A program made the translations under genes and the position numbers. This document shows, one piece after another, positions 1 to 56,147 of a stretch of 64,000 nucleotides of DNA. The notes under the pieces were generated by a model that saw only the letters and a list, made by a program, of their open reading frames with translations, had not been told where the DNA came from and did no database searches. Positions within the stretch are counted from its first letter, which is position 1. Every line of letters begins with the position of its first letter. The DNA is from Burkholderiales bacterium (GTDB lineage Bacteria; Pseudomonadota; Gammaproteobacteria; Burkholderiales; SG8-41), in the NCBI GenBank assembly GCA_030683105.1, contig JAUXMZ010000069.1, positions 11,665 to 75,664 on the forward strand. The letters run 5' to 3'.

Positions 1-3000
1 CGCGCCACACAATTGTATTGCCGCGGCTGCGGTGCGCCGGTGCGGCGCGACTCGCCGCAAAGCATCGTCGACGACGTCGTGCGGCGCGCGCGCGATGCGG
101 ACGATCCGCGCCTTATCATCGCCTTCCCGGTGGAGGTGCCGAAAAACTTCACCCTCGCGGAAATCAAGCAACTGCTCGAGGCCCAGGGCTATACCCGTTT
201 CTTAAGCGAATCACCGCAGCGCTGCGAAGTGATCCAGGACCGGCTGCGCGCCGGCTGCGCGGAGCGCGCGCGGCTGGCCGAAGCAGTGGAAGCGGCGCTT
301 AGGGTCGGACAGGGGCGCATTAACGTGCATGTGGTGAACGAAGCGGCGGACAGCGCCCTACTCATTAACCCTCTCCCCTACCCTCTCCCTTCAAAGGGAG
401 AGGGAGAAACTTTGCGCGCCGGCAGCACCGCGCGCGAAAGCGCCGTTCCGTCTCACGCCTCACGCCTCACGCCTCGCGCTTCACGCATTACCCCTCACTC
501 CTCACTCCTCACTCCTCACGCGCCATGGCGCTACTCCACGGCGCTGCACTGCGCGGACTGCGACATCCATTACCAGGACCCGCTGCCCAGCCTGTTTTCC
601 TTCAACTCGCCGATGGGCGCGTGCGACACCTGCCGCGGTTTCGGCCGCGTGATCGGCGTCGATTTCGGACTGGTGGTGCCCGATGCCGCGCTGACGCTGC
701 GCGGCGGTGCGGTGCGGCCGTGGCAGACGCCGAGCTTCAAGGAGTGCCAGGACGACCTGGTGAAGTACGCGAAAAAGCGCGGCATGCCACTCGACACGCC
801 GTGGCGCGATCTGGATGAAGATGCGCGGCGTTGGGTGCTGGAAGGCGAACCCGAGTGGGTGAACTGGAAGCAGTCGTGGCCCGGCACCTGGTACGGCGTG
901 CGGCGCTTTTTCAAGTGGCTGGAGACCAAGTCCTACAAGATGCACATCCGCGTGCTGCTGTCGAAGTACCGCGCTTACACCGCGTGCACCGACTGCAACG
1001 GTGCACGCCTGAAGCCGGCGGCACTGCTGTGGCGGCTGGGCACGCAGGACAACGCGCGCGATGCGCTGGGAACGCGTCCGCGCTTCAGGCCGCAGGGGGT
1101 AACGTTTTCAGACGAAGTACTGGCGCAACTGCCGGGCCTCAACCTCTATGACCTGATGCTGCTGCCGTTGTCCGAAGTGCGGCGTTTTTTCGATACCTTG
1201 CAACTGCCGCGCCCGCTGGATGAAGCGACCGAACTGCTGGTGGGCGAGATCCGCACCCGGCTCGCCTTTCTCGACCAGGTCGGCCTCGGTTATCTCAACC
1301 TCGACCGCCAGTCGCGCACGCTGTCGGGCGGCGAAGTGCAGCGCATCAACCTCACCACCGCGCTCGGCACCTCGCTGGTCAACACGCTGTTCGTGCTCGA
1401 TGAGCCGTCGATCGGCTTGCATCCGCGCGACATGGGACGCGTGATCGAGGTCATGCAGCGGCTGCGCGACGCCGGCAACACGCTGGTGGTGGTGGAGCAC
1501 GATCCGCAGATCATGCTCGCCGCCGACCGCATCCTCGACATGGGGCCGGGACCGGGCGAACACGGCGGCGAAGTGGTGTTTTTCGGTACACCTAAAACAT
1601 TAATAAAATCAGATACTTCCGTAACAGGCCGCTACCTGGCTGGAGAATTGCACGCGGACCGTGGCACTCGGCCGGTGAAGCCCGCGGCGAACGCGCCTGC
1701 GCTGCATCTGACCGGCGCAACCGAACACAATCTCAAGAACATCGATGTGCGTTTTCCACTGCGCCACATGGTGTGCCTCACCGGCGTGTCGGGTTCGGGC
1801 AAATCGACGCTGGTGCAGGACGTGCTGCACGCGGCGCTGCTGCAGGCCAAGGGCAAGCCCACCGAGGCGCCGGGACGCCATCGCGCATTGCGCGGCCACG
1901 AACATCTCAGTGACGTGGTGCTGGTGGACCAGACGCCGATCGGCCGCACCACGCGCTCCAATCCCGCGAGCTACGTCGGCGCCTTCGACGCGATCCGCAA
2001 CCTGTATATGCGCGCGCCGCTGGCGCGCGAGCGCGCCTACACCACGGGCACCTTCAGTTTCAATTCGGGCAACGGCCGCTGCCCGGCCTGCGGCGGCAAC
2101 GGGTTTGAGCATGTCGAGATGCAGTTCCTGTCCGACGTCTATCTGCGCTGCCCGGATTGCGACGGCCGGCGCTACCGCGCGGAAATCCTCGAAGTCACGC
2201 TGCGCGGCAAATCCATTGCCGACGTGCTCGACCTCACGGTGTCCGAGGCCAGCCGCTTCTTCGCCGACGAACCTTCGGTCATCGCCGCGCTCGCCCCGCT
2301 GTCCGACGTCGGCCTCGATTATCTGAAACTGGGCCAGCCGGTGCCCACGCTGTCGGGCGGCGAAGCGCAGCGCCTCAAGCTCGCCGGCTATCTCGCGGCT
2401 CACGCCGTCACCCTGCGCCCGCGCAAAGGCAAGGCTGCCTCCGCCGCACACACGCTGTTCCTGTTCGACGAGCCCACCACCGGCCTGCACTTCGAGGACG
2501 TGGCGCGGCTGTTGCAGGCGTTACGCCGCCTGATCGCCGCCGGGCATTCGCTGATCATCATCGAGCACAACCTGGACGTGATCCGCGCCAGCGACTGGAT
2601 CATCGACCTCGGCCCCGAGGGGGGTGACGCCGGCGGCGAGATCGTGTGTGTGGGCACGGCGGAAGACGTGATGGCGCATGCCGCCTCGCACACCGGCCGC
2701 GCATTGCGCGAGTATGCCAAGGCGCTGCAACCCGGTGCGGCCGAGGCCAGCGCAGCCGTGGCCGCCATGCCCGCGGTCAAGCGCCACAATGCCATCCGAG
2801 TGCACCACGCGCGCGAGCACAATCTGCGCAACATCGACGTCGACATCCCGCATGGCCGCTTCACGGTAATCACCGGCGTGTCGGGCAGCGGCAAGTCCAC
2901 GCTCGCCTTCGACATCCTGTTCGCGGAAGGGCAGCGCCGCTATCTCGAATCGCTCAACGCCTACGCGCGCCAGTTCGTGCAGTCGGCGGCGCGGCCCGAC

Positions 3001-5469
3001 GTGGACGCCATCTACGGCATCCCGCCCACTGTCGCCATCGAGCAGCGCACCAGCCGCGGCGGGCGCAAAAGCACGGTGGCCACGCTGACCGAGATCTACC
3101 ACTTCCTGCGCCTGCTCTACGTCAAGCTCGGCACCCAGTACTGCCCGGACTGCGATGTCGCCATCGCGCCGCAGAGCTTGGACAGCATCGCCGCGCGCAT
3201 CCTGCGCGACTATGGGAAAAAAGGCGGCGGCAACCATATCGGCGTGCTGGCGCCGCTGGTGGTCAACCGCAAGGGCTATTACACCGATCTCGCCAAGTGG
3301 GCGGCAGCGCGCGGCTACACCCATTTGATGGTGGACGGCGAGTTCATCGAAACCGCGCATTGGCCGCGCCTGTCGCGCTTCCAGGAACACAACATCGAAC
3401 TGCCGGTGGCCGACATCACTGTGAGTCCGGACAACGAGGCCGCGCTGCGCGCAGCGCTCGCCGAGGCCATAGACCACGGCAAGGGTGTGGTGCACGTACT
3501 GGACAATCTGGGCGCGCTGGCGCAGGCCGTGCAGCGCAAGAGCACTGCGCCGGTCCAGCTTACGCGCAGCGTGTTCTCGGTCAAGCGCGCCTGTCCGTCC
3601 TGCAACATGAGCTTCCCGGAACCGGACCCGCGATTGTTTTCCTTCAACTCGCGCCATGGCTGGTGCGCCGCCTGTTTCGGCACCGGGCTCAAGCTCGACG
3701 CCGTGGGCTGGGACGAATCGCGCGAGAAAACCGGCACCGAAGATCACGTGCTCGATTCCTGGCTGCAATGGCTGGAAATCGACGAGCCCTGCCCCGCCTG
3801 CCATGGCCAGCGTCTGAACCGCCAGGCGCTGGCGGTGCGGCTGGAAGACCAGTCCATCTCGGCGCTGACCGCGCATCCGGTGAAGCGACTCGCGCAATTT
3901 TTCAGCAAGCTGAAGCTGGGAGCGCGCGAAGCCGCTATCGCGCGCGACGTGCTGGCCGAACTGCACAGCCGGCTCGGTTTCCTGCAGCAGGTGGGGCTCG
4001 ATTACCTGACGCTGGACCGCGCCGCGCCCACGCTCTCCGGCGGCGAAGCGCAGCGCATCCGGCTCGCTGCCCAGCTGGGCTCCAACCTGCAGGGCGTGTG
4101 CTACATCCTCGACGAGCCCACCATCGGCCTGCATCCGCGCGACAACCGCATCCTGCTCGACACCCTGCAGCAGCTCGAAGCGCGCGGCAACACGCTGGTG
4201 GTGGTGGAGCATGACGAAGACACCATACGCCGCGCCAACCATGTGATCGACCTCGGTCCGGGCGCGGGCAAGCACGGCGGCCTGGTCATCGCCAGCGGCA
4301 CGGCGGCGCAACTGATGCGCCAGCCGCAATCGGTCACCGGCCGCTTTCTCGCCAACCCGCTGCGCCACCCGCTGCATCCACCGCGTGCAGTGGACAGGAA
4401 AACACCGCGGCTTTGCATCGACAACACGACCCTGCATAACCTGAAACATCTTGATGTGCGCCTGCCTCTGCAGCGGCTGGTGGTGATCACCGGCGTCTCC
4501 GGCTCCGGAAAATCGACCCTGGCGCGGGATGTGCTGCACGCCAACCTGGCGCAGCAGGTGGCGGCACGGCGCACCCACAAACAGCCGCCGCTGACCGGCT
4601 GCAAGGCGCTGCGCGGCGGGGACGACATCGGCCGCGTGCTGGAAGTGGACCAGACGCCGATCGGCAAGACGCCGCGCTCCTGCCCCGCGACCTACGTCGG
4701 CTTCTGGGACGCGATCCGGCGCCTCTACGCCGAAACGCCGGAAGCGCGCATGCGCGGCTACAACGCGGGCCGCTTCTCGTTCAATACCGCCGGCGGCCGC
4801 TGCGCGGCCTGCGAGGGCCAGGGCATGAAGAAAATCGAAATGAGCTTCCTGCCCGACGTCAAAGTGCCGTGCGAGGTGTGCGGCGGCGCGCGTTTCGACA
4901 CCGAAACGCTGGCGGTGCGCTTCAAGGACAAATCCATAGGCGACGTGCTCGCCATGAACATAGACGAGGCGGCCGATTTTTTCAGCGCGCACACCGCCAT
5001 CCACCACGCGCTCACGCTGCTGCAGCAGGTAAGCCTGGGCTATCTCACGCTGGGCCAGCAAAGTCCCACGCTGTCCGGCGGCGAAGCGCAGCGCATCAAG
5101 CTCGTAACCGAATTGTCCAAGGTGCGCGCCGACGGCAATGATGCCGCCGCGCGGCCGGGACGCGCGGGCTCTAAAAAACAGTCGCTCTACGTGCTCGACG
5201 AGCCCACGGTCGGCCTGCACATGGCGGACGTCGAGAAACTGATCCGCGTGCTGCACCGCCTGGTCGATGCCGGCAACAGCGTGGTGGTGATCGAGCACAA
5301 TCTCGACATCATCGCCGAAGCCGACTGGATCATCGACCTCGGCCCGGAAGCGGGTGACGCCGGCGGCGAGATCGTGGCTGAAGGCCCGCCCGCCGCATTG
5401 GCCCGATCCAGCCGGCGCTCGCACACCGCGCGCATCCTCACCGAATTCCTGCGCGAACGCACAGCCTGA
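1..5469 (+). CDS. uvrA: Excinuclease ABC subunit A, double-length (tandem UvrA), 5'-truncated by window
   Basis: Frame open from base 1; three visible GVSGSGKST Walker A motifs, four LSGGE signatures, four DEP Walker B motifs, CxxC zinc fingers; in-frame repeat insertion near 349-522. Confidence 0.93.
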   Translation, partial: RATQLYCRGCGAPVRRDSPQSIVDDVVRRARDADDPRLIIAFPVEVPKNFTLAEIKQLLEAQGYTRFLSESPQRCEVIQDRLRAGCAERARLAEAVEAALRVGQGRINVHVVNEAADSALLINPLPYPLPSKGEGETLRAGSTARESAVPSHASRLTPRASRITPHSSLLTPHAPWRYSTALHCADCDIHYQDPLPSLFSFNSPMGACDTCRGFGRVIGVDFGLVVPDAALTLRGGAVRPWQTPSFKECQDDLVKYAKKRGMPLDTPWRDLDEDARRWVLEGEPEWVNWKQSWPGTWYGVRRFFKWLETKSYKMHIRVLLSKYRAYTACTDCNGARLKPAALLWRLGTQDNARDALGTRPRFRPQGVTFSDEVLAQLPGLNLYDLMLLPLSEVRRFFDTLQLPRPLDEATELLVGEIRTRLAFLDQVGLGYLNLDRQSRTLSGGEVQRINLTTALGTSLVNTLFVLDEPSIGLHPRDMGRVIEVMQRLRDAGNTLVVVEHDPQIMLAADRILDMGPGPGEHGGEVVFFGTPKTLIKSDTSVTGRYLAGELHADRGTRPVKPAANAPALHLTGATEHNLKNIDVRFPLRHMVCLTGVSGSGKSTLVQDVLHAALLQAKGKPTEAPGRHRALRGHEHLSDVVLVDQTPIGRTTRSNPASYVGAFDAIRNLYMRAPLARERAYTTGTFSFNSGNGRCPACGGNGFEHVEMQFLSDVYLRCPDCDGRRYRAEILEVTLRGKSIADVLDLTVSEASRFFADEPSVIAALAPLSDVGLDYLKLGQPVPTLSGGEAQRLKLAGYLAAHAVTLRPRKGKAASAAHTLFLFDEPTTGLHFEDVARLLQALRRLIAAGHSLIIIEHNLDVIRASDWIIDLGPEGGDAGGEIVCVGTAEDVMAHAASHTGRALREYAKALQPGAAEASAAVAAMPAVKRHNAIRVHHAREHNLRNIDVDIPHGRFTVITGVSGSGKSTLAFDILFAEGQRRYLESLNAYARQFVQSAARPDVDAIYGIPPTVAIEQRTSRGGRKSTVATLTEIYHFLRLLYVKLGTQYCPDCDVAIAPQSLDSIAARILRDYGKKGGGNHIGVLAPLVVNRKGYYTDLAKWAAARGYTHLMVDGEFIETAHWPRLSRFQEHNIELPVADITVSPDNEAALRAALAEAIDHGKGVVHVLDNLGALAQAVQRKSTAPVQLTRSVFSVKRACPSCNMSFPEPDPRLFSFNSRHGWCAACFGTGLKLDAVGWDESREKTGTEDHVLDSWLQWLEIDEPCPACHGQRLNRQALAVRLEDQSISALTAHPVKRLAQFFSKLKLGAREAAIARDVLAELHSRLGFLQQVGLDYLTLDRAAPTLSGGEAQRIRLAAQLGSNLQGVCYILDEPTIGLHPRDNRILLDTLQQLEARGNTLVVVEHDEDTIRRANHVIDLGPGAGKHGGLVIASGTAAQLMRQPQSVTGRFLANPLRHPLHPPRAVDRKTPRLCIDNTTLHNLKHLDVRLPLQRLVVITGVSGSGKSTLARDVLHANLAQQVAARRTHKQPPLTGCKALRGGDDIGRVLEVDQTPIGKTPRSCPATYVGFWDAIRRLYAETPEARMRGYNAGRFSFNTAGGRCAACEGQGMKKIEMSFLPDVKVPCEVCGGARFDTETLAVRFKDKSIGDVLAMNIDEAADFFSAHTAIHHALTLLQQVSLGYLTLGQQSPTLSGGEAQRIKLVTELSKVRADGNDAAARPGRAGSKKQSLYVLDEPTVGLHMADVEKLIRVLHRLVDAGNSVVVIEHNLDIIAEADWIIDLGPEAGDAGGEIVAEGPPAALARSSRRSHTARILTEFLRERTA
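369..407. repeat. CCCTCTCCC/GGGAGAGGG hairpin repeat inside uvrA
   Basis: ccctctccct-tcaa-agggagaggg perfect stem 381-404, preceded by a second ccctctcccc. Confidence 0.75.
453..522. repeat. Heptamer tandem array (TCACGCC/TCACTCC, 10 units) inside uvrA
   Basis: tcacgcc x3, tcgcgct, tcacgca, ttacccc, tcactcc x3, tcacgcg. Confidence 0.9.
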
Positions 5470-30959: not shown

Positions 30960-31059
30960 AGTTTTAAATGTTGAGTTTTGAGTGCTGAGTTATTTTCTTC
31001 CCGCGGCGCATGCGCCTGCAAACTTCAAACTCAACACTCAGCACTCAGCACTCAGCACT
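30960..31059. repeat. Inverted heptamer tandem-repeat element (AGTGCTG / CACTCAG)
   Basis: Left agtttta aatgttg agttttg agtgctg agt; right aactcaa cactcag x3. Confidence 0.8.
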
Positions 31060-31122
31060 GCGGGAATGCCCAGCCACACCCTCATCGCGCCATTTTATGA
31101 CCCGGTTGCACGCCGCGCTGGA

Positions 31123-38411: not shown

Positions 38412-38893
38412 CCGCCGCGAACCAGACCCGCAGCCCGCGGCTTGCGCTCAGCGTGCAGCATGGCATTGCCGCAAGCAATCTGCCCTCGCGCTTCCAGCTG
38501 CGAAAATGGGCGCGCGCAGCACTCGAACATGACGCGAAGATCGCGGTGCGTATTGTGGGCCAGTCCGAAGGCCGGATGCTGAACCGCAGTTATCGCCACA
38601 AGGACTATGCGACCAATGTCCTGACCTTCATATTCCGGGAGACGCCGCCGTTCGAGGGCGACCTTGCGCTGTGCGCGCCGGTGATTACGCGCGAAGCCCG
38701 CGAGCAGGGCAAAAGCGTTGCTGCGCACTACGCGCATCTGGTGGTGCACGGCGTGCTGCATCTGCAGGGCTACGGCCACGAAAAAAAATCCGATGCCCGG
38801 GTCATGGAAAAGCGGGAATCACAGATCATCACCCAATTGGGCTATGCTGATCCTTACGGACGAGAGGCGAGAGGGGTGAGGCGTCAGGCGTAA
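38408..38893 (+). CDS. ybeY: rRNA maturation RNase YbeY
   Basis: TNVLTF, HGVLHLQGYGH. Confidence 0.94.
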   Translation: MTAANQTRSPRLALSVQHGIAASNLPSRFQLRKWARAALEHDAKIAVRIVGQSEGRMLNRSYRHKDYATNVLTFIFRETPPFEGDLALCAPVITREAREQGKSVAAHYAHLVVHGVLHLQGYGHEKKSDARVMEKRESQIITQLGYADPYGREARGVRRQA

Positions 38894-38941
38894 GGCGTGG
38901 ATTGCAGCATTACGCCTCACTCCTCACTCTTCACTCCTCAC
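38861..38941. repeat. Inverted heptamer element overlapping ybeY stop
   Basis: Left cgagagg cgagagg ggtgagg cgtcagg cgtaagg; right ttacgcc tcactcc tcactct tcactcc. Confidence 0.8.
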
Positions 38942-38947
38942 CGATTT

Positions 38948-39782: not shown

Positions 39783-41435
39783 ATGGCGAACAAAAAAGCC
39801 GGTCAGGATACCCAAGGGGCTTCATCCTTCATCCTTCATCCTTCGTCCTTCAGAAACACCATCCTCCTTGCTTTTTTCCTGGGCGCGCTCACCGTGGCGG
39901 GGTTTGCACCGTTCTCCCTGTTTCCGCTGCCGGTACTCACGCTGGCGTTGCTGATGCGGCTGTGGACCATGCAGGCGCTGCCGCGCCGCGCCGCCGTTCT
40001 CGGTTTTGCGTTCGGGCTGGGCCTGTTTCTGTGCGGCGTGTCCTGGGTGTATATCAGTCTTCACGACTTCGGCGCCATGCCGGCAGCGCTCGCGGCGGCG
40101 GCGACATTGCTGTTCTGCATCTATCTTGCACTGTTCCCGGCGCTCGCCGGTTATCTGTTTGCGGCAACCGCGCTGCCCGTCGTCTTCCGGCTGACGCTGT
40201 TTCTCCCCGCGGCATGGACTGTGCTCGAGTGGACGCGGGGATGGCTGTTCACCGGGTTCCCATGGCTCGCGATCGGTTACTCCCAAGTCCCGCTGGGCCC
40301 GCTCGCGGGGTACGCGCCAGTGCTGGGCATCTATGGCGTGACGCTGGCCACGGTACTCAGCGCGGGACTGCTGGTCGTGCTGTGGCAGCACTGCACCGCC
40401 AATGCTGAATCCGGAATGATGAATGCGGAACAGCTGTCGCGAAAAGCGCGATTTTTTAAATTCATCGCTCATCGCTCATCGTTCATCATTTTGGCCCTCT
40501 GGCTTACCGGCTGGGCCTTGCAAAAGGTCGAATGGACACACCCCACCGGCGCTCCGTTGCAGGTCAGCCTGCTTCAGGGAAACATTCCGCAGGAACTCAA
40601 ATGGCGCGAAGACCACGTCAGGACCACCCTCGATTATTACCGCAACCTGGTCGAGACCAGCGACAGCCGGCTCATCATTCTTCCGGAAACCGCACTGCCG
40701 CTGTTTTTGCAGCATGTCCCCGCTGACTACCTGGAAACGCTTGCCGCACACGCGAAGAAACACAATGGCGACATCCTGGTCGGCGTTCCCGAAAGACTGA
40801 AAAGCGGCGATTATTACAACAGCGTGCTGTCGTTCGGCACGGCACCCACGCAAAGCTACCGCAAGTCCCATCTGGTGCCATTCGGGGAATACATCCCGCT
40901 GCGCCCCGTGCTCGGCGGAATCGTCGCCGTGCTTGCGATTCCGCTGCAGGACTTTGCGCGCGGCGAGACCACCCAGCAGCCGCTTAACGTCGCCGGGCAG
41001 CGTGTCGCAGTCAACATCTGTTATGAGGACGCGTTCGGGGAAGAAATCATCCGCCAGCTGCCGCAGGCAACGCTGCTCGTCAATGTCAGCAACGTCGCCT
41101 GGTTCGGCCGTTCGGTCGCCCCGCGGCAACATCTTCAGATCTCGCAGGCTCGCGCGCTCGAAACCGGGCGCTACATGCTGCGCGCCACCAATACCGGCGT
41201 CACGGGCGTGATCGATCAGCGCGGTCGCGTGGTACGCAGCGCACCCGAGTTCGCCACGGCCACCGTCACTCATTCTGTCCAGGGTTATCAGGGCGCGACC
41301 CCGTATGTCCGGTGGGGAAATTACGCGGTGCTGGCGCTGGCGCTGTTGCTGATGGCATCCGCCTTCGTGATACGCCATGTGCGCGCATCCAATAAACCAA
41401 CTCAACACCGCAAATTGCCGACTACGGGAACGTAA
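39783..41435 (+). CDS. lnt: Apolipoprotein N-acyltransferase
   Basis: [28 protein letters not shown]; contains repeat-derived in-frame segments. Confidence 0.94.
39821..39852. repeat. Heptamer array TTCATCC in lnt N-terminus
   Basis: ttcatcc x3, ttcgtcc, ttca. Confidence 0.85.
40401..40490. repeat. Inverted heptamer element in frame within lnt
   Basis: Left aatgctg aatccgg aatgatg aatgcgg aa; right t tcatcgc tcatcgc tcatcgt tcatcat t. Confidence 0.75.
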
Positions 41436-44571: not shown

Positions 44572-44712
44572 CGTGAATCGTAAATCGTGATTAGTGAATG
44601 GTATAAAACCAATGAGCCCCTTCTTCGTTTCTAGCGATTTACGATTTACCATTCATTCTTTTCAATACCCTCTTGAGGGGTACGATTTACCACTCACTAT
44701 TCACCATTCACG
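44572..44712. repeat. Inverted heptamer element (CGTGAAT / ATTCACG)
   Basis: Left cgtgaat cgtaaat cgtgatt agtgaat; right arms at 44636-44655 and 44681-44712. Confidence 0.82.
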
Positions 44713-45246
44713 ATGAAACTGATAATCCTCGACCGCGACGGTGTCATCAACCACGACAGTGCGTCCTACATCAAGAGCCCGGATGAATGGAAACCTATTC
44801 CCGGCAGTCTGGAAGCGATCGCACGGCTCAACCAGGACGGATATCACGTGGTGGTGGCCACCAACCAGTCCGGCGTGGGCCGCGGGCTGTTCGAAATGGC
44901 CACGCTCAATGCCATACATGACAAGATGCACCGTGCGGTGGGGCAGGCCGGGGGGCGCATAGACGCCGTGTTCTTCTGCCCGCACGCCAATGACGCCGGC
45001 TGCAACTGCCGCAAACCCAAACCCGGCTTGTTCAAGGAGATTGCGAGCCGCTTCAATGTCAATTTGCAGGGCGTGCCCAGTATCGGGGATTCGTCGCGCG
45101 ATCTCGAAGCTTCGGCCGCGGTCGGCGCACAGCCCATACTGGTGCTAACCGGCAAGGGGAAACAAACCCAGCGTGAGAACAGCATGCCGCCGGATACGCA
45201 GGTTTTTGCCGATCTTGCCGAGGCCGCCAAAGCCCTGATCCGATGA
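44713..45246 (+). CDS. gmhB: D-glycero-beta-D-manno-heptose 1,7-bisphosphate phosphatase
   Basis: DRDGVIN, TNQSG, CPH...CNCRKP. Confidence 0.95.
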   Translation: MKLIILDRDGVINHDSASYIKSPDEWKPIPGSLEAIARLNQDGYHVVVATNQSGVGRGLFEMATLNAIHDKMHRAVGQAGGRIDAVFFCPHANDAGCNCRKPKPGLFKEIASRFNVNLQGVPSIGDSSRDLEASAAVGAQPILVLTGKGKQTQRENSMPPDTQVFADLAEAAKALIR

Positions 45247-46001: not shown

Positions 46002-46057
46002 AACCAGGTTCGACAGGCTGCTAGTGGAGTACTTCATGCTGTTTGGAACATATCTGG

Positions 46058-46205
46058 CGCGACATTTGCGAAACTCCTCCCCCTTCAAGAGGAAGATTGG
46101 GAGGGGGATGGGCGCGTACGGCGTGTATTTCCAACCCATCCCCACCCTGCCCTCCCCTTGAAGGGGAGGGAATAATGTCGCAGCAATTGCGAAGCACTAC
46201 ACTAG
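46058..46205 (+). repeat. Dispersed hairpin element, copy 1 (CCCTCCCC/GGGGAGGG family)
   Basis: Near-identical to reverse complement of 50708-50877. Confidence 0.88.
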
Positions 46206-46885
46206 GCGACACGCTGATCGACTATACGGTCAAGCGCAGCCGGCGCCGGCGCCGGATCTCCCTCACTGTGGACGAACAAGGCTTGCGCGTAGGCGCCCCC
46301 TTGCTGGCCAGCGACCACGCGATAGCCGCCATGTTGCGCCAGCATGCATCATGGGTGCTTGGGAAACTTGCCGAGTGGCAGGCACGCCGGCCGCCGCCCA
46401 GACACTGGTGCGATGGCGATACGCTGATGCTGCAGGGCCGGGTACTGCGTCTCGCTTTCGAAACCGGCCCGCAGTACATACAGTTGCATCATGACCGGAT
46501 CGCGGTCAGCCCGGGCCTGGCAGGCAACGCCGACGGCATCCGCGCCACCGTTACCGGCTGGCTGCGGCGGCAGGCCATGGCGTGCTTTTATGAACGGGTC
46601 GCGCACTTTCATCCCTTGCTTGGCGTCGCTGCGCCGCTGATCCGCCTCTCCAATGCCCGTACCCGCTGGGGTAGCTGTCATATCTATGGCCGCATCCGGC
46701 TCAACTGGCGCCTGATACAGCTGCCGCAGCATCTTATCGACTACGTGGTCGTGCACGAGCTTGCGCATCTCGTGGAAATGAATCATTCACCCCGATTCTG
46801 GGAGGCGGTTGCCCGCCTGATCCCGGATTACGGTGCGCGCAGATCAGAAATCAGGACCGAGGGTCATCGCTACCTGCTGGTCTAG
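46175..46885 (+). CDS. YgjP/DUF45 (M48-like) metal-dependent hydrolase
   Basis: RWGSC, IDYVVVHELAHL, NHSPRFW; candidate ATG lies inside the repeat. Confidence 0.88.
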   Translation: MSQQLRSTTLGDTLIDYTVKRSRRRRRISLTVDEQGLRVGAPLLASDHAIAAMLRQHASWVLGKLAEWQARRPPPRHWCDGDTLMLQGRVLRLAFETGPQYIQLHHDRIAVSPGLAGNADGIRATVTGWLRRQAMACFYERVAHFHPLLGVAAPLIRLSNARTRWGSCHIYGRIRLNWRLIQLPQHLIDYVVVHELAHLVEMNHSPRFWEAVARLIPDYGARRSEIRTEGHRYLLV

Positions 46886-47025: not shown

Positions 47026-47064
47026 AGAAAGGTTGTAGGTCGGCAATGCCCCCACGACACGTTA

Positions 47065-47144: not shown

Positions 47145-47196
47145 AGCGGCTGTGCTAATATTTCATCCATATCATTCACTGCATTTTTCTCACACC

Positions 47197-48728: not shown

Positions 48729-48758
48729 TTGCTTTTTTTTTTCACTGTGGATTAGAAT
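48729..48758 (+). promoter_or_regulatory. Candidate sigma70 promoter for microprotein
   Basis: TTGCTT - 18 nt - TAGAAT. Confidence 0.45.
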
Positions 48759-48899
48759 TGGCGCACCAACCACAACTTTTCCGAATTCGTTCGGAAAAAC
48801 GACAAGCAGTAATGTGAGTTGTTCGAGAGTTGTGTGATGGTGGTGCGGAACAAACGCCGCACTTTAACGATGCCTAAGTTAACTTTAAGGAGACTTGTT

Positions 48900-48959
48900 A
48901 TGGCAGCGAAGAAAAAAGCAAAGAAAAAAGTAGCTAAGAAGAAAGCAGCCAAGAAGTAG
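48900..48959 (+). CDS. 19-aa Lys/Ala-rich microprotein MAAKKKAKKKVAKKKAAKK
   Basis: Strong RBS taaggag, ATG...TAG, own terminator downstream. Confidence 0.65.
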   Translation: MAAKKKAKKKVAKKKAAKK

Positions 48960-48973
48960 TTGTAGTTAGTAAG

Positions 48974-49007
48974 TAACAGGGGCCGGGAAACCGGCCCCTG
49001 TTATTTT
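48974..49007 (+). terminator. Intrinsic terminator
   Basis: taacaggggccgg-gaaa-ccggcccctgtta followed by tttt. Confidence 0.85.
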
Positions 49008-49161
49008 GTACTGCATCCTCTGTGATTTATCCGCCATCGCATCCGGCTCCGCGCGCTGTTGTCAATATCCAGTGCCAACTCCCGCAGCGCCTGCACGAAT
49101 AATAAAATTAATTAATATAATCAATGTATTGCAATGTTTCTATGGCGACCGGCGCGATGTT

Positions 49162-49232
49162 GCGTAAGCGGCAAACCGTGAGCCGTGAACAGCTGGTCTT
49201 ACGATCCACGGCTCACGGCTTACCGCTCACGC
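49162..49232. repeat. Inverted heptamer element (CGTGAGC / GCTCACG)
   Basis: gcgtaagcggcaaaccgtgagccgtga ... ccacggctcacggcttaccgctcacgc. Confidence 0.8.
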
Positions 49233-49267
49233 CTTCTAGGTACAGGTGGTAATAGAGGTACGCGATC

Positions 49268-50026
49268 TCAGGGATTGAGCTGCCGATATACCGCAGTGGC
49301 AACGCGCAGCAATTCATCTTTTGCGATCTCGGCTGAAAGCGCGTAGCCGAGTCTGCCGTCAAGCCAGTAAAACACGCCGATTTTATTTTCCCGCGCAAAG
49401 CGAAAAGCGGTCTCGCGCGCATCCTCCGCGTTGGTGCGGACATAGAGCGTGAGTCGCAGGCCTTTTGCGTCCTGGTACATGAATTGCGCGACCGGGCCGG
49501 TGTCGCCGGGTAAAAGGCGCCCGCCAACCAGGGTGTAGCCAAGCTCGCCGAGATGCGGGACCTTGAGTTGGGCGCCAAGCCGTTTCGACAGCCAGTTGAC
49601 GAGATGCGTCTCCTGGTCTGCGCCCACTTCGACCGGATGCCGCACTTCGGGGCTGTAGACGATATGCGCAATCGCCGCCCGCCGCGCAAAAGCGGCGCTG
49701 TTGGTGGACGGCGGATGCTGCATGCCGCTCAATTGCCAGCCGATCACGCCGCCCAGCGTTATCCAGGCCACTACGGCAGCATAGCGCAGCGGAAAAAAGC
49801 GCCGGCGCGCGGCCAGCGGTACCCGCAGACGCTCCGGTACGGGTTCATCGAGCACCGGATCGAACAGCCGATGCAGTTCCTCGTTCTGCCGCCGGTACGC
49901 CTGAACGCGCCCGGCTTCCTGCGGCCGTGCCGCAAGATAGGTCTCGACCTCGGCGCGACGCGCCTGAGGCAGCGCGCCATCGACGTAAGCGTGCAGGTCG
50001 GCTTCGGTAATGGTTAAATTGCTCAT
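49268..50026 (-). CDS. Transmembrane anti-sigma factor
   Basis: LHAYVDG, TM segment, HPVEV, WLSKRLG, GGRLLP; overlaps sigma stop. Confidence 0.9.
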   Translation of the reverse strand: MSNLTITEADLHAYVDGALPQARRAEVETYLAARPQEAGRVQAYRRQNEELHRLFDPVLDEPVPERLRVPLAARRRFFPLRYAAVVAWITLGGVIGWQLSGMQHPPSTNSAAFARRAAIAHIVYSPEVRHPVEVGADQETHLVNWLSKRLGAQLKVPHLGELGYTLVGGRLLPGDTGPVAQFMYQDAKGLRLTLYVRTNAEDARETAFRFARENKIGVFYWLDGRLGYALSAEIAKDELLRVATAVYRQLNP

Positions 50027-50915: not shown

Positions 50916-52337
50916 CTATTTGCCCGGCTTGGCCGGACGGATTGGCCCACCGAAGACGTGTTCGTCCAACTGCCAGCGCGAAGCAAGTGTTTCGACTGCA
51001 TTCAGGATTTCCTCGGCGCGAGTCGGATGGTTGTAGGCTGCTCCGGCCAGTTTTTTAAGGGCATCGCCGGTACCGAACTCCACGCCCAGAATGTGTATCA
51101 ACTCGGAAGCATCCTTGCCGACGATCTCGGCCCCAAGCAGGCGGCCGCTGTCCATGTCGGCGATCAGGCGCACGAAGCCGCGTGCATCACCCTGCCCGAG
51201 CGCGGCGGGATTGACGCCGAACGCGGTAAAACCGACAGCGGGTTCGATGTCGCGGGCTTCGGCCAAATCCTCGTTTAATCCGATGCGCGCGAGTTCCAGT
51301 GCGGAATAGACGACTTCGGGCACCGCATCGTCATCTCGCTGCCGTGACTGCGGCGCGATGATGTTCGCCACGGCGACTGCCGCCTCCGCCAGCGCGTGAT
51401 TGGAGGTCATCGCCCGGTTTGCCACATCGCCTATGGCATAAACCGATGGGGCGCTCGTCTGCTGGCAGGCATCGACCTTGATGTATCCCTCGCCATCGAT
51501 ATCAACCTCCGCCGCAGCCAGTCCCAGACCGGCCGTGTGCGGCACGCGGCCTGCGCCCAGCAACACCCAGTCGACGGTCTCCCGGGTGCCGTCCGGCAGC
51601 GTCAGTATCACGCCAGCCGCGCCGACCTCGGCCGCCGTCACACGGCTCGCGGTTCGCGGCCGGATACCGAGGGCGGAACACGCTTCCTGCAAAGCCTTGA
51701 GCGCCGGCGCGCTGTAGGCGCTGCGCGACAGCGGTTCCTGTTGCATCAGCCAGACGACGTCGAGCCCGAACATGCTGAGTATGAATGCAAATTCAGCACC
51801 AATCACGCCCGAACCGATCAGCGCGACGCGTTTACCGGCGGGCGGCTCGCGGTCAAACAGGTCATCGGTCGTAAGTATGCGGTCCCGGACGGGCTGAAGG
51901 TTTGAGGGAACGAAAGGTGACGAGCCCGTGGCTACGATCACGTGCGCGGCAGCTACCTGAATTTCATCCCCCACGGCCAGGGTATTGCGATCGAGAAAAC
52001 GCGCGGCGCCCTGCATTGTCCTGACACCGAGTCGGTTCAGATAGTCGGTATAGCTCTCGCGCACTTTGGCCACGACACCGCGCTGATGATGCCAGGCGCC
52101 GGACAGGTCGCCGCGCAGCGCGCCCTCGATCCCGCGCGCATCAAACTCGCGGCTGGCCTCGAGCAGGCGCGCGCTGTGATACCAGTCTTTCTTCGGCACG
52201 CAGCCGCGGTTAAGGCAACAGCCGCCCCACTGGTGTTTTTCGACGATGGCGACCTTGAGCCCGCGCAGCGCGGCCAGCACCGCGGCGCGGTAGCCGCCGG
52301 GCCCGGAACCGATGATGGCAAGGTCAAAGTTGTTCAT
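50916..52337 (-). CDS. Dihydrolipoyl dehydrogenase-like flavoprotein
   Basis: GSGPGG, GGCCLNRGCVPKK disulfide motif, GSGVIG, YAIGD, HPTRAE. Confidence 0.85.
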   Translation of the reverse strand: MNNFDLAIIGSGPGGYRAAVLAALRGLKVAIVEKHQWGGCCLNRGCVPKKDWYHSARLLEASREFDARGIEGALRGDLSGAWHHQRGVVAKVRESYTDYLNRLGVRTMQGAARFLDRNTLAVGDEIQVAAAHVIVATGSSPFVPSNLQPVRDRILTTDDLFDREPPAGKRVALIGSGVIGAEFAFILSMFGLDVVWLMQQEPLSRSAYSAPALKALQEACSALGIRPRTASRVTAAEVGAAGVILTLPDGTRETVDWVLLGAGRVPHTAGLGLAAAEVDIDGEGYIKVDACQQTSAPSVYAIGDVANRAMTSNHALAEAAVAVANIIAPQSRQRDDDAVPEVVYSALELARIGLNEDLAEARDIEPAVGFTAFGVNPAALGQGDARGFVRLIADMDSGRLLGAEIVGKDASELIHILGVEFGTGDALKKLAGAAYNHPTRAEEILNAVETLASRWQLDEHVFGGPIRPAKPGK

Positions 52338-52345
52338 AGAATCTA

Positions 52346-52758
52346 GCCACAGAGATCACAGAGATCACAGAGAAACTCGCTTGATTCCGTGTACGAGTTT
52401 TTCGGCACCAAAATTGATTATCAGGGCTCTCTTCAATCCTGTGACTGTCAGATAGGACAAGACCTGTGCGGTTGCAACTTCAGGAACAGTGCGCAGTGAT
52501 TTTATTTCTACCACAACCTGATTATTTACCAAGAGATCGAGCCGCTGGCCCTGAATGGCACAGTCCTTATATTTGACTTCCACAGCAACTTGCTTTTGAA
52601 AGGGCATGCCCCGAAGTGACACCTCATGGCACAACGCCTCCTGATAAATCGATTCCAGCAAACCCGGGCCAAGAAGCTTGTGCACCTCGACTGCGGCGCC
52701 AATTATCGCTTCGGTGAGATCATCACTCATCGTGGCCTGCCTTTATATACTCTGTGGC
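52346..52758 (-). mobile_element. GxxExxY cassette bounded by inverted nonamer-repeat arms (mobility inferred)
   Basis: gccacagagatcacagagatcacagaga at 52346-52373 and ctctgtggc ending 52758 enclose the ORF. Confidence 0.6.
52365..52730 (-). CDS. GxxExxY protein (PD-(D/E)XK nuclease fold)
   Basis: GPGLLESIY, RLDLLV...VVEIK, AQVLSYL, INFG; visibly AT-richer than neighbours. Confidence 0.93.
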   Translation of the reverse strand: MSDDLTEAIIGAAVEVHKLLGPGLLESIYQEALCHEVSLRGMPFQKQVAVEVKYKDCAIQGQRLDLLVNNQVVVEIKSLRTVPEVATAQVLSYLTVTGLKRALIINFGAEKLVHGIKRVSL

Positions 52759-52782
52759 AAAAAGCCACGTCAACCTTCATTC

Positions 52783-52859
52783 GCCACAGAGAGCGCAGAG
52801 TTCACAAAGAAAACCCCTTTAGTCGGGAAAAACTCTGTGTTCTCTGTGTCCTCTGTGGC
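52783..52859. repeat. Gene-less nonamer inverted element
   Basis: gccacagagagcgcagagttcacaaaga ... ctctgtgttctctgtgtcctctgtggc. Confidence 0.88.
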
Positions 52860-52865
52860 AAAAAA

Positions 52866-54302
52866 CTACACGAGAAAAACGGTAGCCAGTCCCAGGAAAA
52901 TAAAAAACCCCCCGCTATCCGTTATCGCGGTGATCATCACGCTCGCTCCCACCGCCGGATCGCGGCCGAGCTTTTGCATCAGCAACGGGATGGTCACGCC
53001 CATCACCGCGGCCAGCAGCAGATTAAGGACCATCGCGCTGGTCATCACCACGCCCAATTGCCAGCTGTGATAAATCAGGAAGGCGAACAGGCCCACCACG
53101 CTGCCCCAGATCAGGCCGTTTAACGCGCTGACGCCGATTTCCTTGGCAAACAGCTTGCGCGCGCTCGTCGTCGTGATCTGGCCCAGCGCAAGGGCGCGCA
53201 CGATCATGGTGATGGTCTGGTTGCCGGAATTGCCGCCGATGCCGGCAATGATGGGCATCAGCGCCGCCAGGGCCACGATGCTGGCGATCGAGTCCTCGAA
53301 CACCCCGATCACCCGCGATGCGATGAACGCCGTCACCAGGTTGATCGCCAGCCAGGCCCAGCGGTTTTTCACGCTCTTCCATACCGAGGCGAACAGGTCT
53401 TCATCTTCGCGCAGACCGCCGGCGGACAGCATATCGCTGTCGGTTGCTTCACGGATGAAATCGACCACGGCATTGACCGTGACGCGCCCGATCAGGCGGC
53501 CAGCGCCGTCGACGACCGGTGCCGACACCAGATCGTAGCGTTCGAACGCGAGCGCCGCATCCTGGGCCTTTTCATCCGGATGAAAATCAACCAGTTCCCT
53601 GACCATCACCGATTCGACCAGGGTTTCGGGATCGGCAATCAGCAGCCGGTTGGTCGGCAGCAGGCCCTTCAGGTGTTCTTCGCGGTCGACCACGAACAAC
53701 TGGTCGGTATGGTCCGGCATTTCCTCGAACCGCCGCAGGTAACGCAGCACGACCTCCACCGTGACGTCGTCGCGCACGCTGATCACATCGAAGTCCATCA
53801 GCGCACCGACCGAGTCCTCCGGATACGACATCGCCGAGCGCAGCTGCTCGCGTTCCTCGACCGGCAGCGACTTGAACACATCGAGAATAACCTCGCGCGG
53901 CAGGTCGGGCGCAAGATCGGCGATCTCGTCGGTGTCGAGCTGGCCGGTGGCGGCGACCAGTTCGTGCTCGTCCATGTGCGCGATCAGCGTCTCGCGCACC
54001 GCATCGGAGACTTCCAGCAGGATATCGCCGTCGCGCTCCGCCCTGACGAGATCCCAGACGATCAGCCGCTGCTCGACGGGCAGCGCTTCGAGTATGTTCG
54101 CAACGTCGGCGGGATGGAGCTTGTCGAGCAGCTTTTGCAGCTCGACCAGGTGCAGCTTGTGCACCAGCGTCTCGACCAGTTCCTGGCGCGGCCCTTCCTG
54201 GCGGTGGACGAGATTCTCCACCAGCTCGTGCTTGTGCAATAGCGCAGTCACCTGCTCCAGGCTCTCCTGCACGCCAGCACGGATGTCTTCAGGTTCGGTC
54301 AT
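52866..54302 (-). CDS. mgtE: Magnesium transporter MgtE
   Basis: LHPAD, CBS pair, GGNSGNQT, DPA...TAITD. Confidence 0.94.
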   Translation of the reverse strand: MTEPEDIRAGVQESLEQVTALLHKHELVENLVHRQEGPRQELVETLVHKLHLVELQKLLDKLHPADVANILEALPVEQRLIVWDLVRAERDGDILLEVSDAVRETLIAHMDEHELVAATGQLDTDEIADLAPDLPREVILDVFKSLPVEEREQLRSAMSYPEDSVGALMDFDVISVRDDVTVEVVLRYLRRFEEMPDHTDQLFVVDREEHLKGLLPTNRLLIADPETLVESVMVRELVDFHPDEKAQDAALAFERYDLVSAPVVDGAGRLIGRVTVNAVVDFIREATDSDMLSAGGLREDEDLFASVWKSVKNRWAWLAINLVTAFIASRVIGVFEDSIASIVALAALMPIIAGIGGNSGNQTITMIVRALALGQITTTSARKLFAKEIGVSALNGLIWGSVVGLFAFLIYHSWQLGVVMTSAMVLNLLLAAVMGVTIPLLMQKLGRDPAVGASVMITAITDSGGFFIFLGLATVFLV

Positions 54303-55815: not shown

Positions 55816-56147
55816 TTAGTAAATCTCCTTTTAAGTTTTTCACCGCTGGGGATATCTGTTCGTATTGCGACAACCCCAACTGCTTTCCCCTCCCCAAACG
55901 GTGAGGTCGAGATCATTCTGCCAAACGGCGCCGCCCGACCGCAACAAAAACGTGACTTTTTCTCTGTATTTCCATCGGGTTGTTGCATCAATGCAACATG
56001 ATGAATGAGGTTTGAGGTTTGCTTCCAATTTGGCTGCGATGCCGTCTGCCTGATCGGTGAAATTTTAATTATCTCATTATAATCAATGGCATATGAATAA
56101 AATACCTTAACAGCGCGAGCCGTGAGCGGTAAGCGTCCGTGTGGTCC

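Follow-up and report, generated by a model that had tools for sequence, protein, structure and literature searches.

The window analyzed here, a 64-kb stretch of the genome of an uncultured soil/groundwater betaproteobacterium, contains 7-base tandem repeats that are wedged between genes and lie inside essential genes. These arrays raise the question of whether they are the arms of a mobile gene cassette, a regulatory module, or simple-sequence DNA that survives where it does no harm. The data comprised the 64 kb of the source genome and one syntenic region of its relatives.

Heptamer arrays form a single family

A period scan (three units, ≤2 mismatches), with 100 first-order Markov shuffles as the control, detected 11 period-7 segments in the window against a shuffle mean of 0.26 and a maximum of 2. 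In the same scan, period 6 showed a modest excess (7 segments versus 3.0 in the shuffles), periods 4 and 5 were at or below the shuffle level, period 9 yielded 2 segments, both of which were nonamer arms, and periods 8 and 10–14 yielded 0. Chains of TCA at exact 7-nt spacing (three or more units) occurred 7 times versus 0.2 in the shuffles, and TCA ranked first among all 64 trinucleotides for chains of four or more units, with 4 in the window. The consensus of 139 units from 31 arrays was TCAYNCY (weights T 91%, C 85%, and A 86%, then Y-N-C-Y), with the TCA core present in 98 of these units. The arrays were also polarized: on the strand of the syntenic genes, 30 were TCA-type, 6 were TGA-type, and 12 were other. 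Four of the six TGA-type arms had a scored complementary downstream arm, and the TGA-type arms of E3 in the window (Table 1) and at 4223 in the related locus L001 had a degenerate or weaker arm as partner. A search of the whole window against Rfam 15 at the gathering score returned no family for the arrays, the sole match being a tRNA-Met (35556–35628).

The earlier note, made from the letters of the window, had claimed heptamer arrays at eight places with the units TCACGCC/TCACTCC, TCAGCAC, TCATCCT, TCATCGC, TCACGAT, and TCACGGC; Tandem Repeats Finder (TRF) and reading of the sequence recovered all eight arrays and every unit. Its proposal that they belong to one family also holds, on the common period, the TCA core, the polarity, the arm architecture, and the presence of like arrays at the same sites in relatives, and the period-7 excess that it suggested checking is present in the window. 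The placement was correct as to position, but three of the eight elements sit within coding sequence and are not intergenic. By their enrichment and copy-number variation, the heptamer arrays are a real family and are members of the heptanucleotide simple-sequence repeats (LSSR/STRR-like).

Table 1. Heptamer elements of the window and their immediate gene context
Feature	Position	Strand	Units and context
E1	448..522	+	Solitary direct array, ~10 units: TCACGCC x3-4, then TCACTCC x3-4
E2 5' arm	30960..30992	+	NNNNTGA type; begins 5 nt past the apaG stop codon
E2 3' arm	31020..31062	+	TCAGCAC units
E3 5' arm	38861..38899	+	ybeY frame enters the arm and stops at TAA 38891-38893
E3 3' arm	38907..38944	+	TCACTCC units; end 2 nt short of the corC ATG at 38947
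E4	39818..39856	+	Solitary TCATCCT array, ~5 units; lnt codons 13-24 (lnt ATG 39783)
E5 5' arm	40401..40432	+	Inside lnt, in frame; stop-poor variant AATGMKG
E5 3' arm	40460..40490	+	Inside lnt; TCATCGC units
E6 5' arm	44572..44600	+	GTGAATC/GTAAATC units; begins 4 nt past the glyS stop codon
E6 proximal 3' arm	44632..44660	+	TTACGAT/TTACCAT/TCATTCT
Small GC hairpin	44667-44681	+	Follows the E6 proximal 3' arm
E6 distal 3' arm	44683..44714	+	TCACTAT/TCACCAT/TCACGAT; last unit overlaps the gmhB ATG at 44713
E7 5' arm	49162..49190	+ (as read)	Gap between convergent genes
E7 3' arm	49204..49234	+	TCACGGC units; 34 nt past the stop of the minus-strand gene 49268..50026
Minor 3-unit array	55999..56019	-	CCTCAAA, TCA-type on the minus strand; porin leader region
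E8	56113..56135	-	Single arm, TCA-type on the minus strand; ~300 nt upstream of the minus-strand porin gene

Inverted arms and stop codons

All five of the inverted arm pairs described earlier (E2, E3, E5, E6, and E7) are present, and in each of them the reverse-complement arm lies upstream. Not all of them fold: RNA folding gave z scores of −5.5, −5.0, −3.2, and −6.1 for four pairs, with 0 of 200 shuffles as good, whereas the pair in lnt (E5) folded no better than shuffles (z −0.3; 68 of 200 as good). E6 (at 44572) moreover has two alternative 3' arms. The solitary arrays E1 and E4 showed no structure on folding. Paired arms were also found in the relatives L001, L002, L010, L019, L054, L058, and L062; in L058, a pair is located 3' of lysA, as with E7. 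Loops were unrelated between elements and only the arms were alike. E8 is similar to the 5' arm of E7, including the AT-rich sequence beside that arm.

Stop triplets were distributed asymmetrically between the arms, at 0.007 per heptad in 3' arms and 0.68 per heptad in intergenic 5' arms, 7 of 12 of which stop all three frames. The 5' arms inside coding sequences carried 0.43 stop triplets per heptad, and none of the five stopped all three frames. In these hairpins, the 5' arm loses TGA and the 3' arm retains TCA despite weaker pairing. In a chimeric-arm test, native stems had a mean of −0.418 kcal/nt versus −0.345 for chimeras, a weak co-variation; 8 of 30 chimeras at ybeY|corC and 5 of 6 at glyS|gmhB matched or beat the worst native stem. 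This difference does not decide the matter, since a purine-rich arm can still pair with a pyrimidine-rich arm made of another unit, and on these sequences the weak co-variation would neither demonstrate nor dismiss selection on the stem. A comparison of sense and antisense strands, meant to separate RNA-level from DNA-level selection, did not favor either strand in stem quality: for 7 of the 14 elements it was the sense RNA that had the greater stability, and the G-U/A-C counts were 38/6 for sense and 37/9 for antisense. An intrinsic terminator was rejected as an identity for the stems, since a terminator scan of 30500–49500 in the window (loops of 3–8 nt only) listed no arm pair and no T-run was seen by eye after the stems of E2, E3, E6, and E7.

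In-frame inserts in Lnt and the UvrA-like protein

E1 is read in frame within a UvrA-like ORF, as part of an insert of ~55 codons (about nt 337–525) that is absent from solved UvrA structures. E4 is likewise in frame and encodes a low-complexity stretch of the lnt product (14 residues), and the whole of E5 corresponds to lnt codons 207–236, an insert found neither in solved Lnt structures nor in outgroup Lnt. In most outgroups, the mid-gene region of lnt encodes 55–56 aa, whereas most members of the clade with arrays have 67–79 aa there (L059 has 61), and no frame change was seen in the Lnt HSPs of any of the 80 related loci. A variable mid-gene insert was present in all 26 aligned Lnt homologues (65–99% identity, picked from 120 listed), and an ILHPSSF-like peptide occurred in 21 of 27 rows of the Lnt alignment. 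In the 99%-identical strain P0002, the Lnt array lengths were equal to those of the window, so this single comparison (n = 1) gave no sign of rapid copy-number change. Across 50 UvrA-like homologues, the insert region spanned 53–113 aa, and 13 of them matched a strict heptamer-derived peptide pattern. The hypervariable SSFILHPSS-, KDEGGRMK-, and TPHASRLTPH-type inserts in these essential proteins are explained as translated heptamer DNA and not as functional domains, and such low-complexity inserts occur across many uncultured Burkholderiales metagenome-assembled genomes (MAGs).

The same sites in relatives

Besides the in-frame sites in Lnt and the UvrA-like protein, the elements occupy a 3' end or, in operons, exactly the space from the stop codon of one gene to the start codon of the next. 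Related uncultured Burkholderiales MAGs carry arrays at these sites too; the units and copy numbers differ, and loss is patchy. At the window junctions, the upstream frame ends inside the 5' arm or 4–5 nt before it; in the window and its relatives, the 3' arms end 0–9 nt before the corC and gmhB starts, with no purine-rich Shine-Dalgarno (SD) sequence between. The corC gene is without an SD sequence in array-free relatives as well, and many close relatives have no heptamer element at glyS|gmhB or ybeY|corC. At the apaG|mltA site, the longest mltA ORF begins at a candidate start within the E2 loop (31010).

In most loci, glyS and gmhB are separated by a gap of 0–7 nt or share an overlapping ATGA, but arrays of 47–148 nt occupy this junction in the window, L001, L054, L062, L068, L013, L067, and L019; copy number ranges from 0 to about 10 units among loci. 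A 47-nt direct array common to three species (L013, L067, and L068) forms a 16-codon relay ORF that runs from one ATGA to the next; it gives an impression of design and not of mere tolerance, but it represents a single event. The junction holds unrelated units across lineages, a GTGAAT-type hairpin versus a CTCCTCA-type direct array, and this recurrent filling could point to repeated targeted insertion rather than evolution in situ. ATGA-like sequence lies on both sides of these inserts, but any viable insertion there needs ATGA anyway. At ybeY|corC, hairpins were found in the window, L001, L002, L010, L019, and L062 (MFE −35 to −71). Here a series can be followed within one 6-row clade, from a single unit before a conserved leader (L009 and L011) through three units (L004) to four or five units plus a 5' arm (L062), indicating copy-number change in situ.

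Over the 80 related loci (1.12 Mb of one syntenic region), 44 period-7 segments were found in 20. The TCA-type arrays were confined to the nearest relatives among these loci, with none in the Nitrosospira, Nitrosomonas, Sulfuriferula, and Methylophilaceae loci. In the Lnt tree, 15 of the 16 array-bearing rows fell in one 25-row clade (support 95), within a tree that requires at least six gains or losses of arrays, and sites were common to species down to about 57–60% Lnt identity. Arms were alike between sites 0.6–1.6 kb apart in one genome and unlike between genomes (L002 and L001); in L002, three sites share an almost identical stop-free 5' arm.

Search for cargo genes and mobile elements

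The earlier note had also suggested a mechanism parallel to that of a nonamer element carrying a GxxExxY gene, with a four-helix-bundle gene elsewhere in the genome as a possible cognate partner. Neither suggestion was borne out in the window and the related loci. In 375,323 nt (the window and 22 loci), arms were compared for complementarity at distances of up to 2.5 kb, and no local heptamer pair (spacers 6–114 nt) enclosed an ORF. Longer-range pairs mostly joined arms of neighboring elements, the intervening sequence being corC or part of lnt; a further pair of 2,035 nt was listed in L067. Family scans covered 64 window ORFs (22 with NCBIfam, 42 more with Pfam) and, with NCBIfam, 57 of the 96 small unassigned ORFs in 17 related loci. 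Among these there was no match to the four-helix-bundle families TIGR02436/PF05635 and no transposase, reverse transcriptase, or HUH gene, and the window contained no RAYT. Because their position is conserved between species in housekeeping operons, the heptamer elements do not behave as cassettes.

One nonamer pair (52337–52868) encloses a GxxExxY gene (TIGR04256, E 4e−38); a second pair in the window is empty, with a 139-nt spacer, and shows no similarity to the first outside the arms. The place upstream of mltA that the heptamer hairpin E2 occupies in the window is taken in L002 by a nonamer array, ~215 nt before the mltA match; the apaG side of this site falls off the contig. No partner arms were found for the nonamer arrays of L002 and L019.

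Literature searches found nothing relevant that tied heptamer repeats to a four-helix bundle or intervening sequence, nothing on flanking repeats of GxxExxY genes as judged from listing entries, and no description of TCA-core heptamer hairpins in Betaproteobacteria. Some comparisons with known motifs were also dropped: TCACCTCC-like units with the 3' end of 16S rRNA, 5' arms with CsrA or SD sites, and 7-bp core sites with integron attC. Many units, TCAGCAC, TCACGAT, and TCACGGC among them, fail to match, and the genes are core genes in conserved order.

Discussion

With moderate confidence, we regard these elements as a lineage-specific family of heptanucleotide microsatellites and hairpins that changes through slippage and concerted evolution and survives where it is harmless. 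Each element would be an array (TCAYNCY)n on the coding strand, often with an upstream reverse complement (RGNRTGA)n that is predicted to give an imperfect stem-loop of ~25–40 bp. The elements would not be gene cassettes, and they bear no apparent mark of transposing copies from one master element; they would instead be vertically inherited at fixed permissive sites, which are probably kept by tolerance rather than benefit. At each site, replication slippage would alter copy number and concerted evolution would turn over the units, alongside exchange with neighboring arrays, decay, and loss, with slippage and gene conversion as the likely engine. Selection would serve as a filter: where ribosomes pass, the stop-free TCA orientation alone would survive on the coding strand, and a whole hairpin in a coding sequence would have its stop-bearing 5'-arm units swapped for stop-free variants and be translated into a linker of low complexity. 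Between genes of an operon, the element would take the place of a closely spaced or overlapping stop and start, with the upstream frame ending in or just before the 5' arm (often with stops in three frames) and the next start following the 3' arm within 0–9 nt. Because the stem would bring stop and start together, coupled translation could persist. Neither slippage nor the translation filter accounts for the invariance of TCA.

The junctions also admit a functional interpretation, which we consider unlikely, namely that the element acts in cis, as an RNA module, on the expression of the operon. Its 3' array, C-rich and free of stops, would serve as a landing site for a factor that binds single-stranded RNA (a cold-shock-domain protein, S1, or Rho are candidates) or as a reinitiation track, with the 5' arm as anti-arm, and upstream translation or cleavage of the stem by RNase III would set the output of the downstream gene. 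The distances from the arms to the corC and gmhB starts with no SD between, the ending of the upstream frame in or near the 5' arm, and the predominance of coding-strand TCA over the six TGA-type arrays, which are members of pairs now or formerly, all agree with this, as do the relay mini-ORF and the two alternative 3' arms of E6, which suggest a switch. The excerpted account of the TAACTGA arrays of Beggiatoaceae likewise places them just upstream of starts and proposes CSP/S1 binding (PMC4679880). However, like arrays also lie in coding sequences (E1, E4, and E5), between convergent genes (E7), and 200–300 nt upstream of a gene (E8), the SD of corC is missing with or without an array, stem quality has no strand asymmetry, and many close relatives manage without an element at the same junction. 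Quite unlikely, in our judgment, is a REP/BIME-like or MITE-like family maintained and spread by an enzyme acting in trans, for example an HUH nuclease of the RAYT or IS200/IS605 type with its gene elsewhere, that recognizes TCA (or TTAC/TCAC) on single-stranded hairpin DNA. The invariance of just three of seven positions across very different units does resemble a recognition site, arms are homogenized over 0.6–1.6 kb within a genome and differ between genomes, REPs also occupy operon junctions, and the unrelated units at glyS|gmhB have (C)ATGA-like flanks as if from a 4–5 bp target duplication. Nevertheless, whatever is inserted or duplicated in tandem at an overlapping stop/start must leave a duplicated ATGA to be viable, the loops are unrelated where the arms match (the nonamer pair and E7/E8), the sites are shared by distant species, and the scanned ORFs contain no transposase or HUH gene.

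It is highly improbable that the elements are empty or decayed copies of IVS-type cassettes whose stems are the heptamer arms and whose cargo is a four-helix-bundle protein. The nonamer arms that flank a GxxExxY gene, the empty second nonamer pair, and the nonamer array near mltA in L002 lend this idea some plausibility, but the local heptamer pairs enclose no ORF, the scans and the literature offer no four-helix-bundle link, and heptamer arrays are often solitary and in some cases translated. A chance or compositional artefact of a GC-rich genome has virtually no probability: short-period self-similarity is common at 60% G+C, but the enrichment of period-7 segments and TCA chains and the recurrence of the same architecture at orthologous sites in other species refute it. 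A more speculative proposal, which we hold to be rather improbable, is that a factor acting in trans recognizes TCA at 7-nt intervals in single-stranded DNA or RNA and is responsible for seeding, copying, or protecting the arrays. If true, factor and arrays would be partners in the manner of REP and RAYT or of a cold-shock-domain protein and its target, with a "three of seven" code; such a partnership would account for the invariant core, the constant period, the polarity on the coding strand, the homogenization within genomes, and the refilling of one stop/start junction by unrelated units. In a weaker version, the arms would be docking stems for IVS-type cassettes with their cargo elsewhere in the genome.

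Returning to the microsatellite–hairpin family, small hairpin repeats at operon junctions are familiar from REP/BIME elements, which are hundreds of species-specific palindrome copies with a cognate RAYT, and palindromic repeats inserted in frame into protein-coding genes are familiar from the Rickettsia palindromic elements (RPE). Both are copies of a conserved consensus, whereas the window has tandem heptamers with just three conserved bases. On the best reading, the closest precedent is the GGGAATC repeats of Xanthomonas with their inverted pairs, which are closer than a new mobile gene cassette. According to the excerpted account (Rehm et al. 2015, PMC4692102), these tandem heptamers are mostly intergenic, number about 180 per genome, include 70–75 inverted pairs able to form stem-loops, and have equal gene context in 83% of cases between two species, with the single or paired type usually kept and copy number differing between species. 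Tandem heptamers, inverted pairs, kept positions, and variable copy number are thus common to both as far as this account extends. The same excerpts describe one G-rich, G-quadruplex-capable unit, whereas the window has many units sharing TCA alone, the C-rich strand as the coding strand, and no regular G3 tracts in its arms; several of its elements are also translated inside genes, and it belongs to another bacterial class.

The TAACTGA direct repeats of marine Beggiatoaceae, some cyanobacteria, and Bacteroidetes (2–6 units) are described in the excerpts as mostly intergenic, directly 5' of start codons, and of fixed orientation, with translational regulation proposed (MacGregor 2015, PMC4679880). 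They resemble the window arrays, as far as described, in a unit containing TGA/TCA and in start-codon-proximal placement. They differ, in the same excerpts, in that the unit is constant, its stop-bearing strand runs forward, and 170 sets include a single inverted pair, whereas in the window it is the stop-free strand that runs forward, and arms often occur in pairs. The cyanobacterial STRR and the heptanucleotide LSSRs of Burkholderia, Xanthomonas, and other bacteria are long simple repeats rich in period 7 with an intergenic bias, and the excerpted accounts (PMC4679880, PMC4692102) describe no TCA core, hairpin pairing, or in-frame coding inserts. Geobacter metallireducens has elements that carry four tandem heptanucleotides (Aklujkar 2009, PMC2700814), with a fixed GC-rich unit in exactly four copies within a longer conserved element, and no unit diversity is reported in the excerpted account.

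For annotation, start codons and gene ends beside heptamer arrays are easily mis-called. The progression at one junction from an ATGA overlap through a direct array to a full hairpin is a natural series that serves the question of whether structured inserts between translationally coupled genes are tolerated or used. The family adds a third well-documented lineage to the unexplained period-7 excess of bacteria, and its invariant trinucleotide constrains any mechanism proposed for period-7 arrays.

Heptamer arrays in the window

The heptamer arrays are real and belong to one single family. Tandem Repeats Finder, followed by inspection of the sequence, showed period-7 arrays at all coordinates named in the earlier note (elements E1–E8; Table). 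When arrays of three units with at most two mismatches were sought identically for all periods, period 7 gave 11 segments in the window, against a mean of 0.26 and a maximum of 2 in 100 Markov shuffles; the remaining periods stayed near chance, with the exception of two nonamer arms. TCA at an exact 7-nt spacing over at least three units occurred 7 times (0.2 expected), and for chains of at least four units TCA ranked first among the 64 trinucleotides. The paired inverted arms described in the same note were likewise borne out: a reverse-complement arm (5′ arm) lay upstream of the downstream array (3′ arm) in five elements, and four arm pairs folded as RNA far beyond shuffles (z = −5.5, −5.0, −3.2, and −6.1). 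The arm pair within lnt folded no better than shuffles (z = −0.3); both solitary arrays lacked RNA structure in the same comparison.

The window consists of betaproteobacterial housekeeping DNA (UvrA-like gene, apaG, mltA, phoH-ybeY-corC-lnt, glyQS-gmhB-plsC, lysA, and porin), and no transposase, reverse transcriptase, or four-helix-bundle gene was found in it. Rfam returned one tRNA and nothing else, and a terminator scan listed none of the arm pairs. The scan did list the E5 spacer, where a small GC stem precedes a T run amid essential coding sequence.

Table. Heptamer elements and other features
Feature	Position	Strand	Remarks
UvrA-like gene	1–5469		double-length, >1,822 aa, open at window edge
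CCCTCTCCC...GGGAGAGGG palindrome	369–406		within in-frame UvrA-like insert, adjoining heptamer array
E1	453		within coding sequence, frame kept; part of ~55-codon UvrA-like insert
Nonamer pair, empty	24138–24330		spacer 139 nt
E2	30960		starts 5 nt past apaG stop codon
tRNA-Met	35556–35631
21-nt direct duplication	35643–35685		perfect; 12 nt past tRNA-Met
E3	38861		ybeY frame enters 5′ arm and stops there; corC ATG 2 nt beyond 3′ arm end
E4	39821		within coding sequence, frame kept; lnt codons 13–24
E5	40401–40432/40460–40490		within coding sequence, frame kept; lnt codons 207–236
E5 spacer stem	40436–40462
E6	44572		begins 4 nt past glyS stop; last unit overlaps gmhB ATG
YgjP-like ORF	46043..46885
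CCCTCTCCC...GGGAGAGGG palindrome	46075–46171		N-terminal part of YgjP-like ORF, ahead of Pfam domain
Tandem duplications	46940–46995		YgjP-like gene to lysA gap; perfect, adjacent; 13 nt ×2.2, then 14 nt ×2
Lysine-rich ORF	48901–48960		19 codons (MAAKKKAKKK...), good Shine-Dalgarno sequence
Terminator-like hairpin	~48980–49007		3′ of lysine-rich ORF
E7	49162		gap of convergent genes
Nonamer pair	52337–52868		encloses GxxExxY gene
GxxExxY gene	52365..52730	minus	121 aa; TIGR04256, E 4e−38
E8	56113		porin leader region, one arm only
Phd-family antitoxin + PIN-domain protein	56502–57145	plus
Gp49-like + HTH antidote-like protein	57232–57830	minus
16-codon ORF arrays	L013:14470–14525, L067:14535–14590, L068:14540–14595		related loci
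Nonamer arrays (CCTCTGCGT)	L002:31–58, L019:11432–11458		related loci

Among the other features, the two toxin-antitoxin-like pairs adjoin one another (56502–57830), and the duplication beside tRNA-Met may be an integration-site scar.

Unit consensus and polarity

A consensus from 139 units in 31 arrays, phased on TCA, had T in 91%, C in 85%, and A in 86% of units, followed by Y, N, a C-rich position, and Y; TCA itself was present in 98 of the 139 units, the usual variants being TTA, GCA, and TCG. Relative to the strand of the syntenic genes, 30 arrays were TCA-type, 6 TGA-type, and 12 of other types. A complementary downstream arm was scored for four of the six TGA-type arms, and the remaining ones (window E3 and 4223 in related locus L001) had a degenerate or weaker arm as partner. 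Both minus-strand arrays of the window lay upstream of a minus-strand gene. Stop triplets per heptad numbered 0.007 in 3′ arms (n = 27), 0.68 in intergenic 5′ arms (stops in all three frames in 7/12), and 0.43 in 5′ arms within coding sequence (0/5), which carried stop-free variants, e.g., GGGCGGA, opposite 3′ partners that were still TCA. In one relative (L002), three neighboring sites carry a near-identical 5′ arm, which suggests that sites of the same genome exchange sequence.

Distribution among relatives and occupancy of gene junctions

A contig search with alignment of Lnt homologues yielded 80 loci (1.12 Mb) from uncultured Burkholderiales/Betaproteobacteria MAGs and from Nitrosospira, Nitrosomonas, Sulfuriferula, Sulfuricella, and Methylophilaceae; because the best match was 78% identical, the source genome is not among them. 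The 44 period-7 segments, about 10 of them of unrelated types, fell in 20 of the 80 loci. TCA-type arrays were restricted to the nearest relatives, with none in the loci of the named nitrifier and methylotroph genera. In an Lnt tree computed without the insert columns and without the partial row L054, a single 25-row clade (support 95) held 15 of the 16 array-bearing rows, and array presence required at least six changes.

In most loci the glyS stop either overlaps the gmhB start or is separated from it by no more than 7 nt, as ...GCATGAAAC..., and arrays stood exactly between them in eight sources. These were hairpins of GTGAAT-type units resembling the junction heptamer itself in the window, L001, and L054, and direct arrays in L062 and L019. 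In L013, L067, and L068, a direct CTCCTCA-type array of 47 nt constitutes a 16-codon ORF running from one ATGA to the next, its ATG overlapping the glyS stop and its terminal TGA the gmhB start; this ORF is a possible relay for coupled translation. At ybeY|corC, hairpins of differing units occurred in the window, L001, L002, L010, L019, and L062 (MFE −35 to −71 kcal/mol), and many relatives of equal closeness had none; inside one small clade, the 3′ array ranged from one unit (L009, L011) through three (L004) to four or five plus a 5′ arm (L062). The elements are thus long established at their sites, whereas their sequence changes readily.

Translated arrays in Lnt and UvrA-like proteins

None of the 80 lnt matches had a frame change, and the mid-gene region comprised 55–56 residues in most outgroups versus 67–79 in most of the array-bearing clade. 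The E5 insert amounts to about 18 residues or more relative to solved Lnt. In a protein alignment of 27 rows with 26 homologues from 120 listed matches (65–99% identity), all 26 had a hypervariable insert at this site; an ILHPSSF-like peptide, corresponding to TCATCCT translated in three frames, was present in 21 of the 27 rows, and a complementary KDEGGRMK-type peptide lay upstream in many. The UvrA-like insert bearing E1 is absent from solved UvrA structures. Across 50 UvrA-like homologues this region spanned 53–113 residues, with a strict heptamer-derived pattern directly before the conserved W-R/K-Y/F-S in 13. The UvrA-like protein has two full UvrA-like halves, and homologues are ~1,850–2,100 aa long. 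The CCCTCTCCC...GGGAGAGGG palindromes constitute a second small repeat family, and PHPHPNPPLEGEG-type peptides matching them occur at the same site in UvrA-like homologues.

Origin and maintenance of the arrays

The earlier note had proposed that the heptamer arrays arise by a mechanism parallel to the nonamer/GxxExxY element, and that their cognate gene may be a four-helix-bundle gene elsewhere in the genome. Nonamer arms (CACAGAGAN / NCTCTGTG) do enclose a GxxExxY gene, and likeness to the second, empty nonamer pair was confined to the arms. Local complementary heptamer pairs, with spacers of 6–114 nt, enclosed no ORF in the 375,323 nt scanned; longer-range matches were mostly arms of adjacent elements, apart from one 2,035-nt pair in L067. 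A search of the window and of 57 of the 96 small unassigned ORFs in 17 related loci gave no match to the four-helix-bundle family. The cassette reading is therefore unsupported across the window and the scanned related loci, and on present evidence the arrays are not four-helix-bundle cassettes. Related nonamer arrays in L002 and L019 had no detectable partner arm; the former lies ~215 nt upstream of an mltA match, a place taken in the window by the heptamer hairpin E2.

The nearest described system is the GGGAATC repeat of Xanthomonas, with ~180 arrays per genome, 70–75 as inverted pairs, and position conserved between two species in 83% (PMC4692102). Also described are TAACTGA arrays of Beggiatoaceae in a single orientation just 5′ of start codons (PMC4679880) and heptanucleotide elements of Geobacter metallireducens both inside and between genes (PMC2700814). 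In Haemophilus, repeats of 7 bp are reported to act in phase variation of hmw, and in Nostoc, heptamer repeats are reported close to rec genes. Heptameric repeats and inverted pairs are thus a known kind, of which the window's family is a variant; in the literature searched, neither TCA-core arrays with a variety of units nor the translation of such arrays within genes was described for Betaproteobacteria.

The data are compatible with a heptanucleotide microsatellite that would grow, shrink, and swap its unit via slippage and conversion, and that may at times be duplicated in inverted orientation. Retention would be limited to sites where the array does no harm, a filter that would account for the polarity on the coding strand, for the lack of stops in the 3′ arm, and for their scarcity in 5′ arms within genes. 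No clear sign of selection on the stem emerged, chimeric arms folding just slightly worse than native ones; across 14 elements, neither stability (sense better in 7) nor G-U versus A-C oppositions differed between sense and antisense. The invariant TCA and the period of 7, for which this model gives no account, are the chief grounds for considering a trans-acting factor as well. At the gene junctions, a microsatellite stem would set the upstream stop beside the downstream start, and coupled translation, formerly via the ATGA overlap, could then persist.
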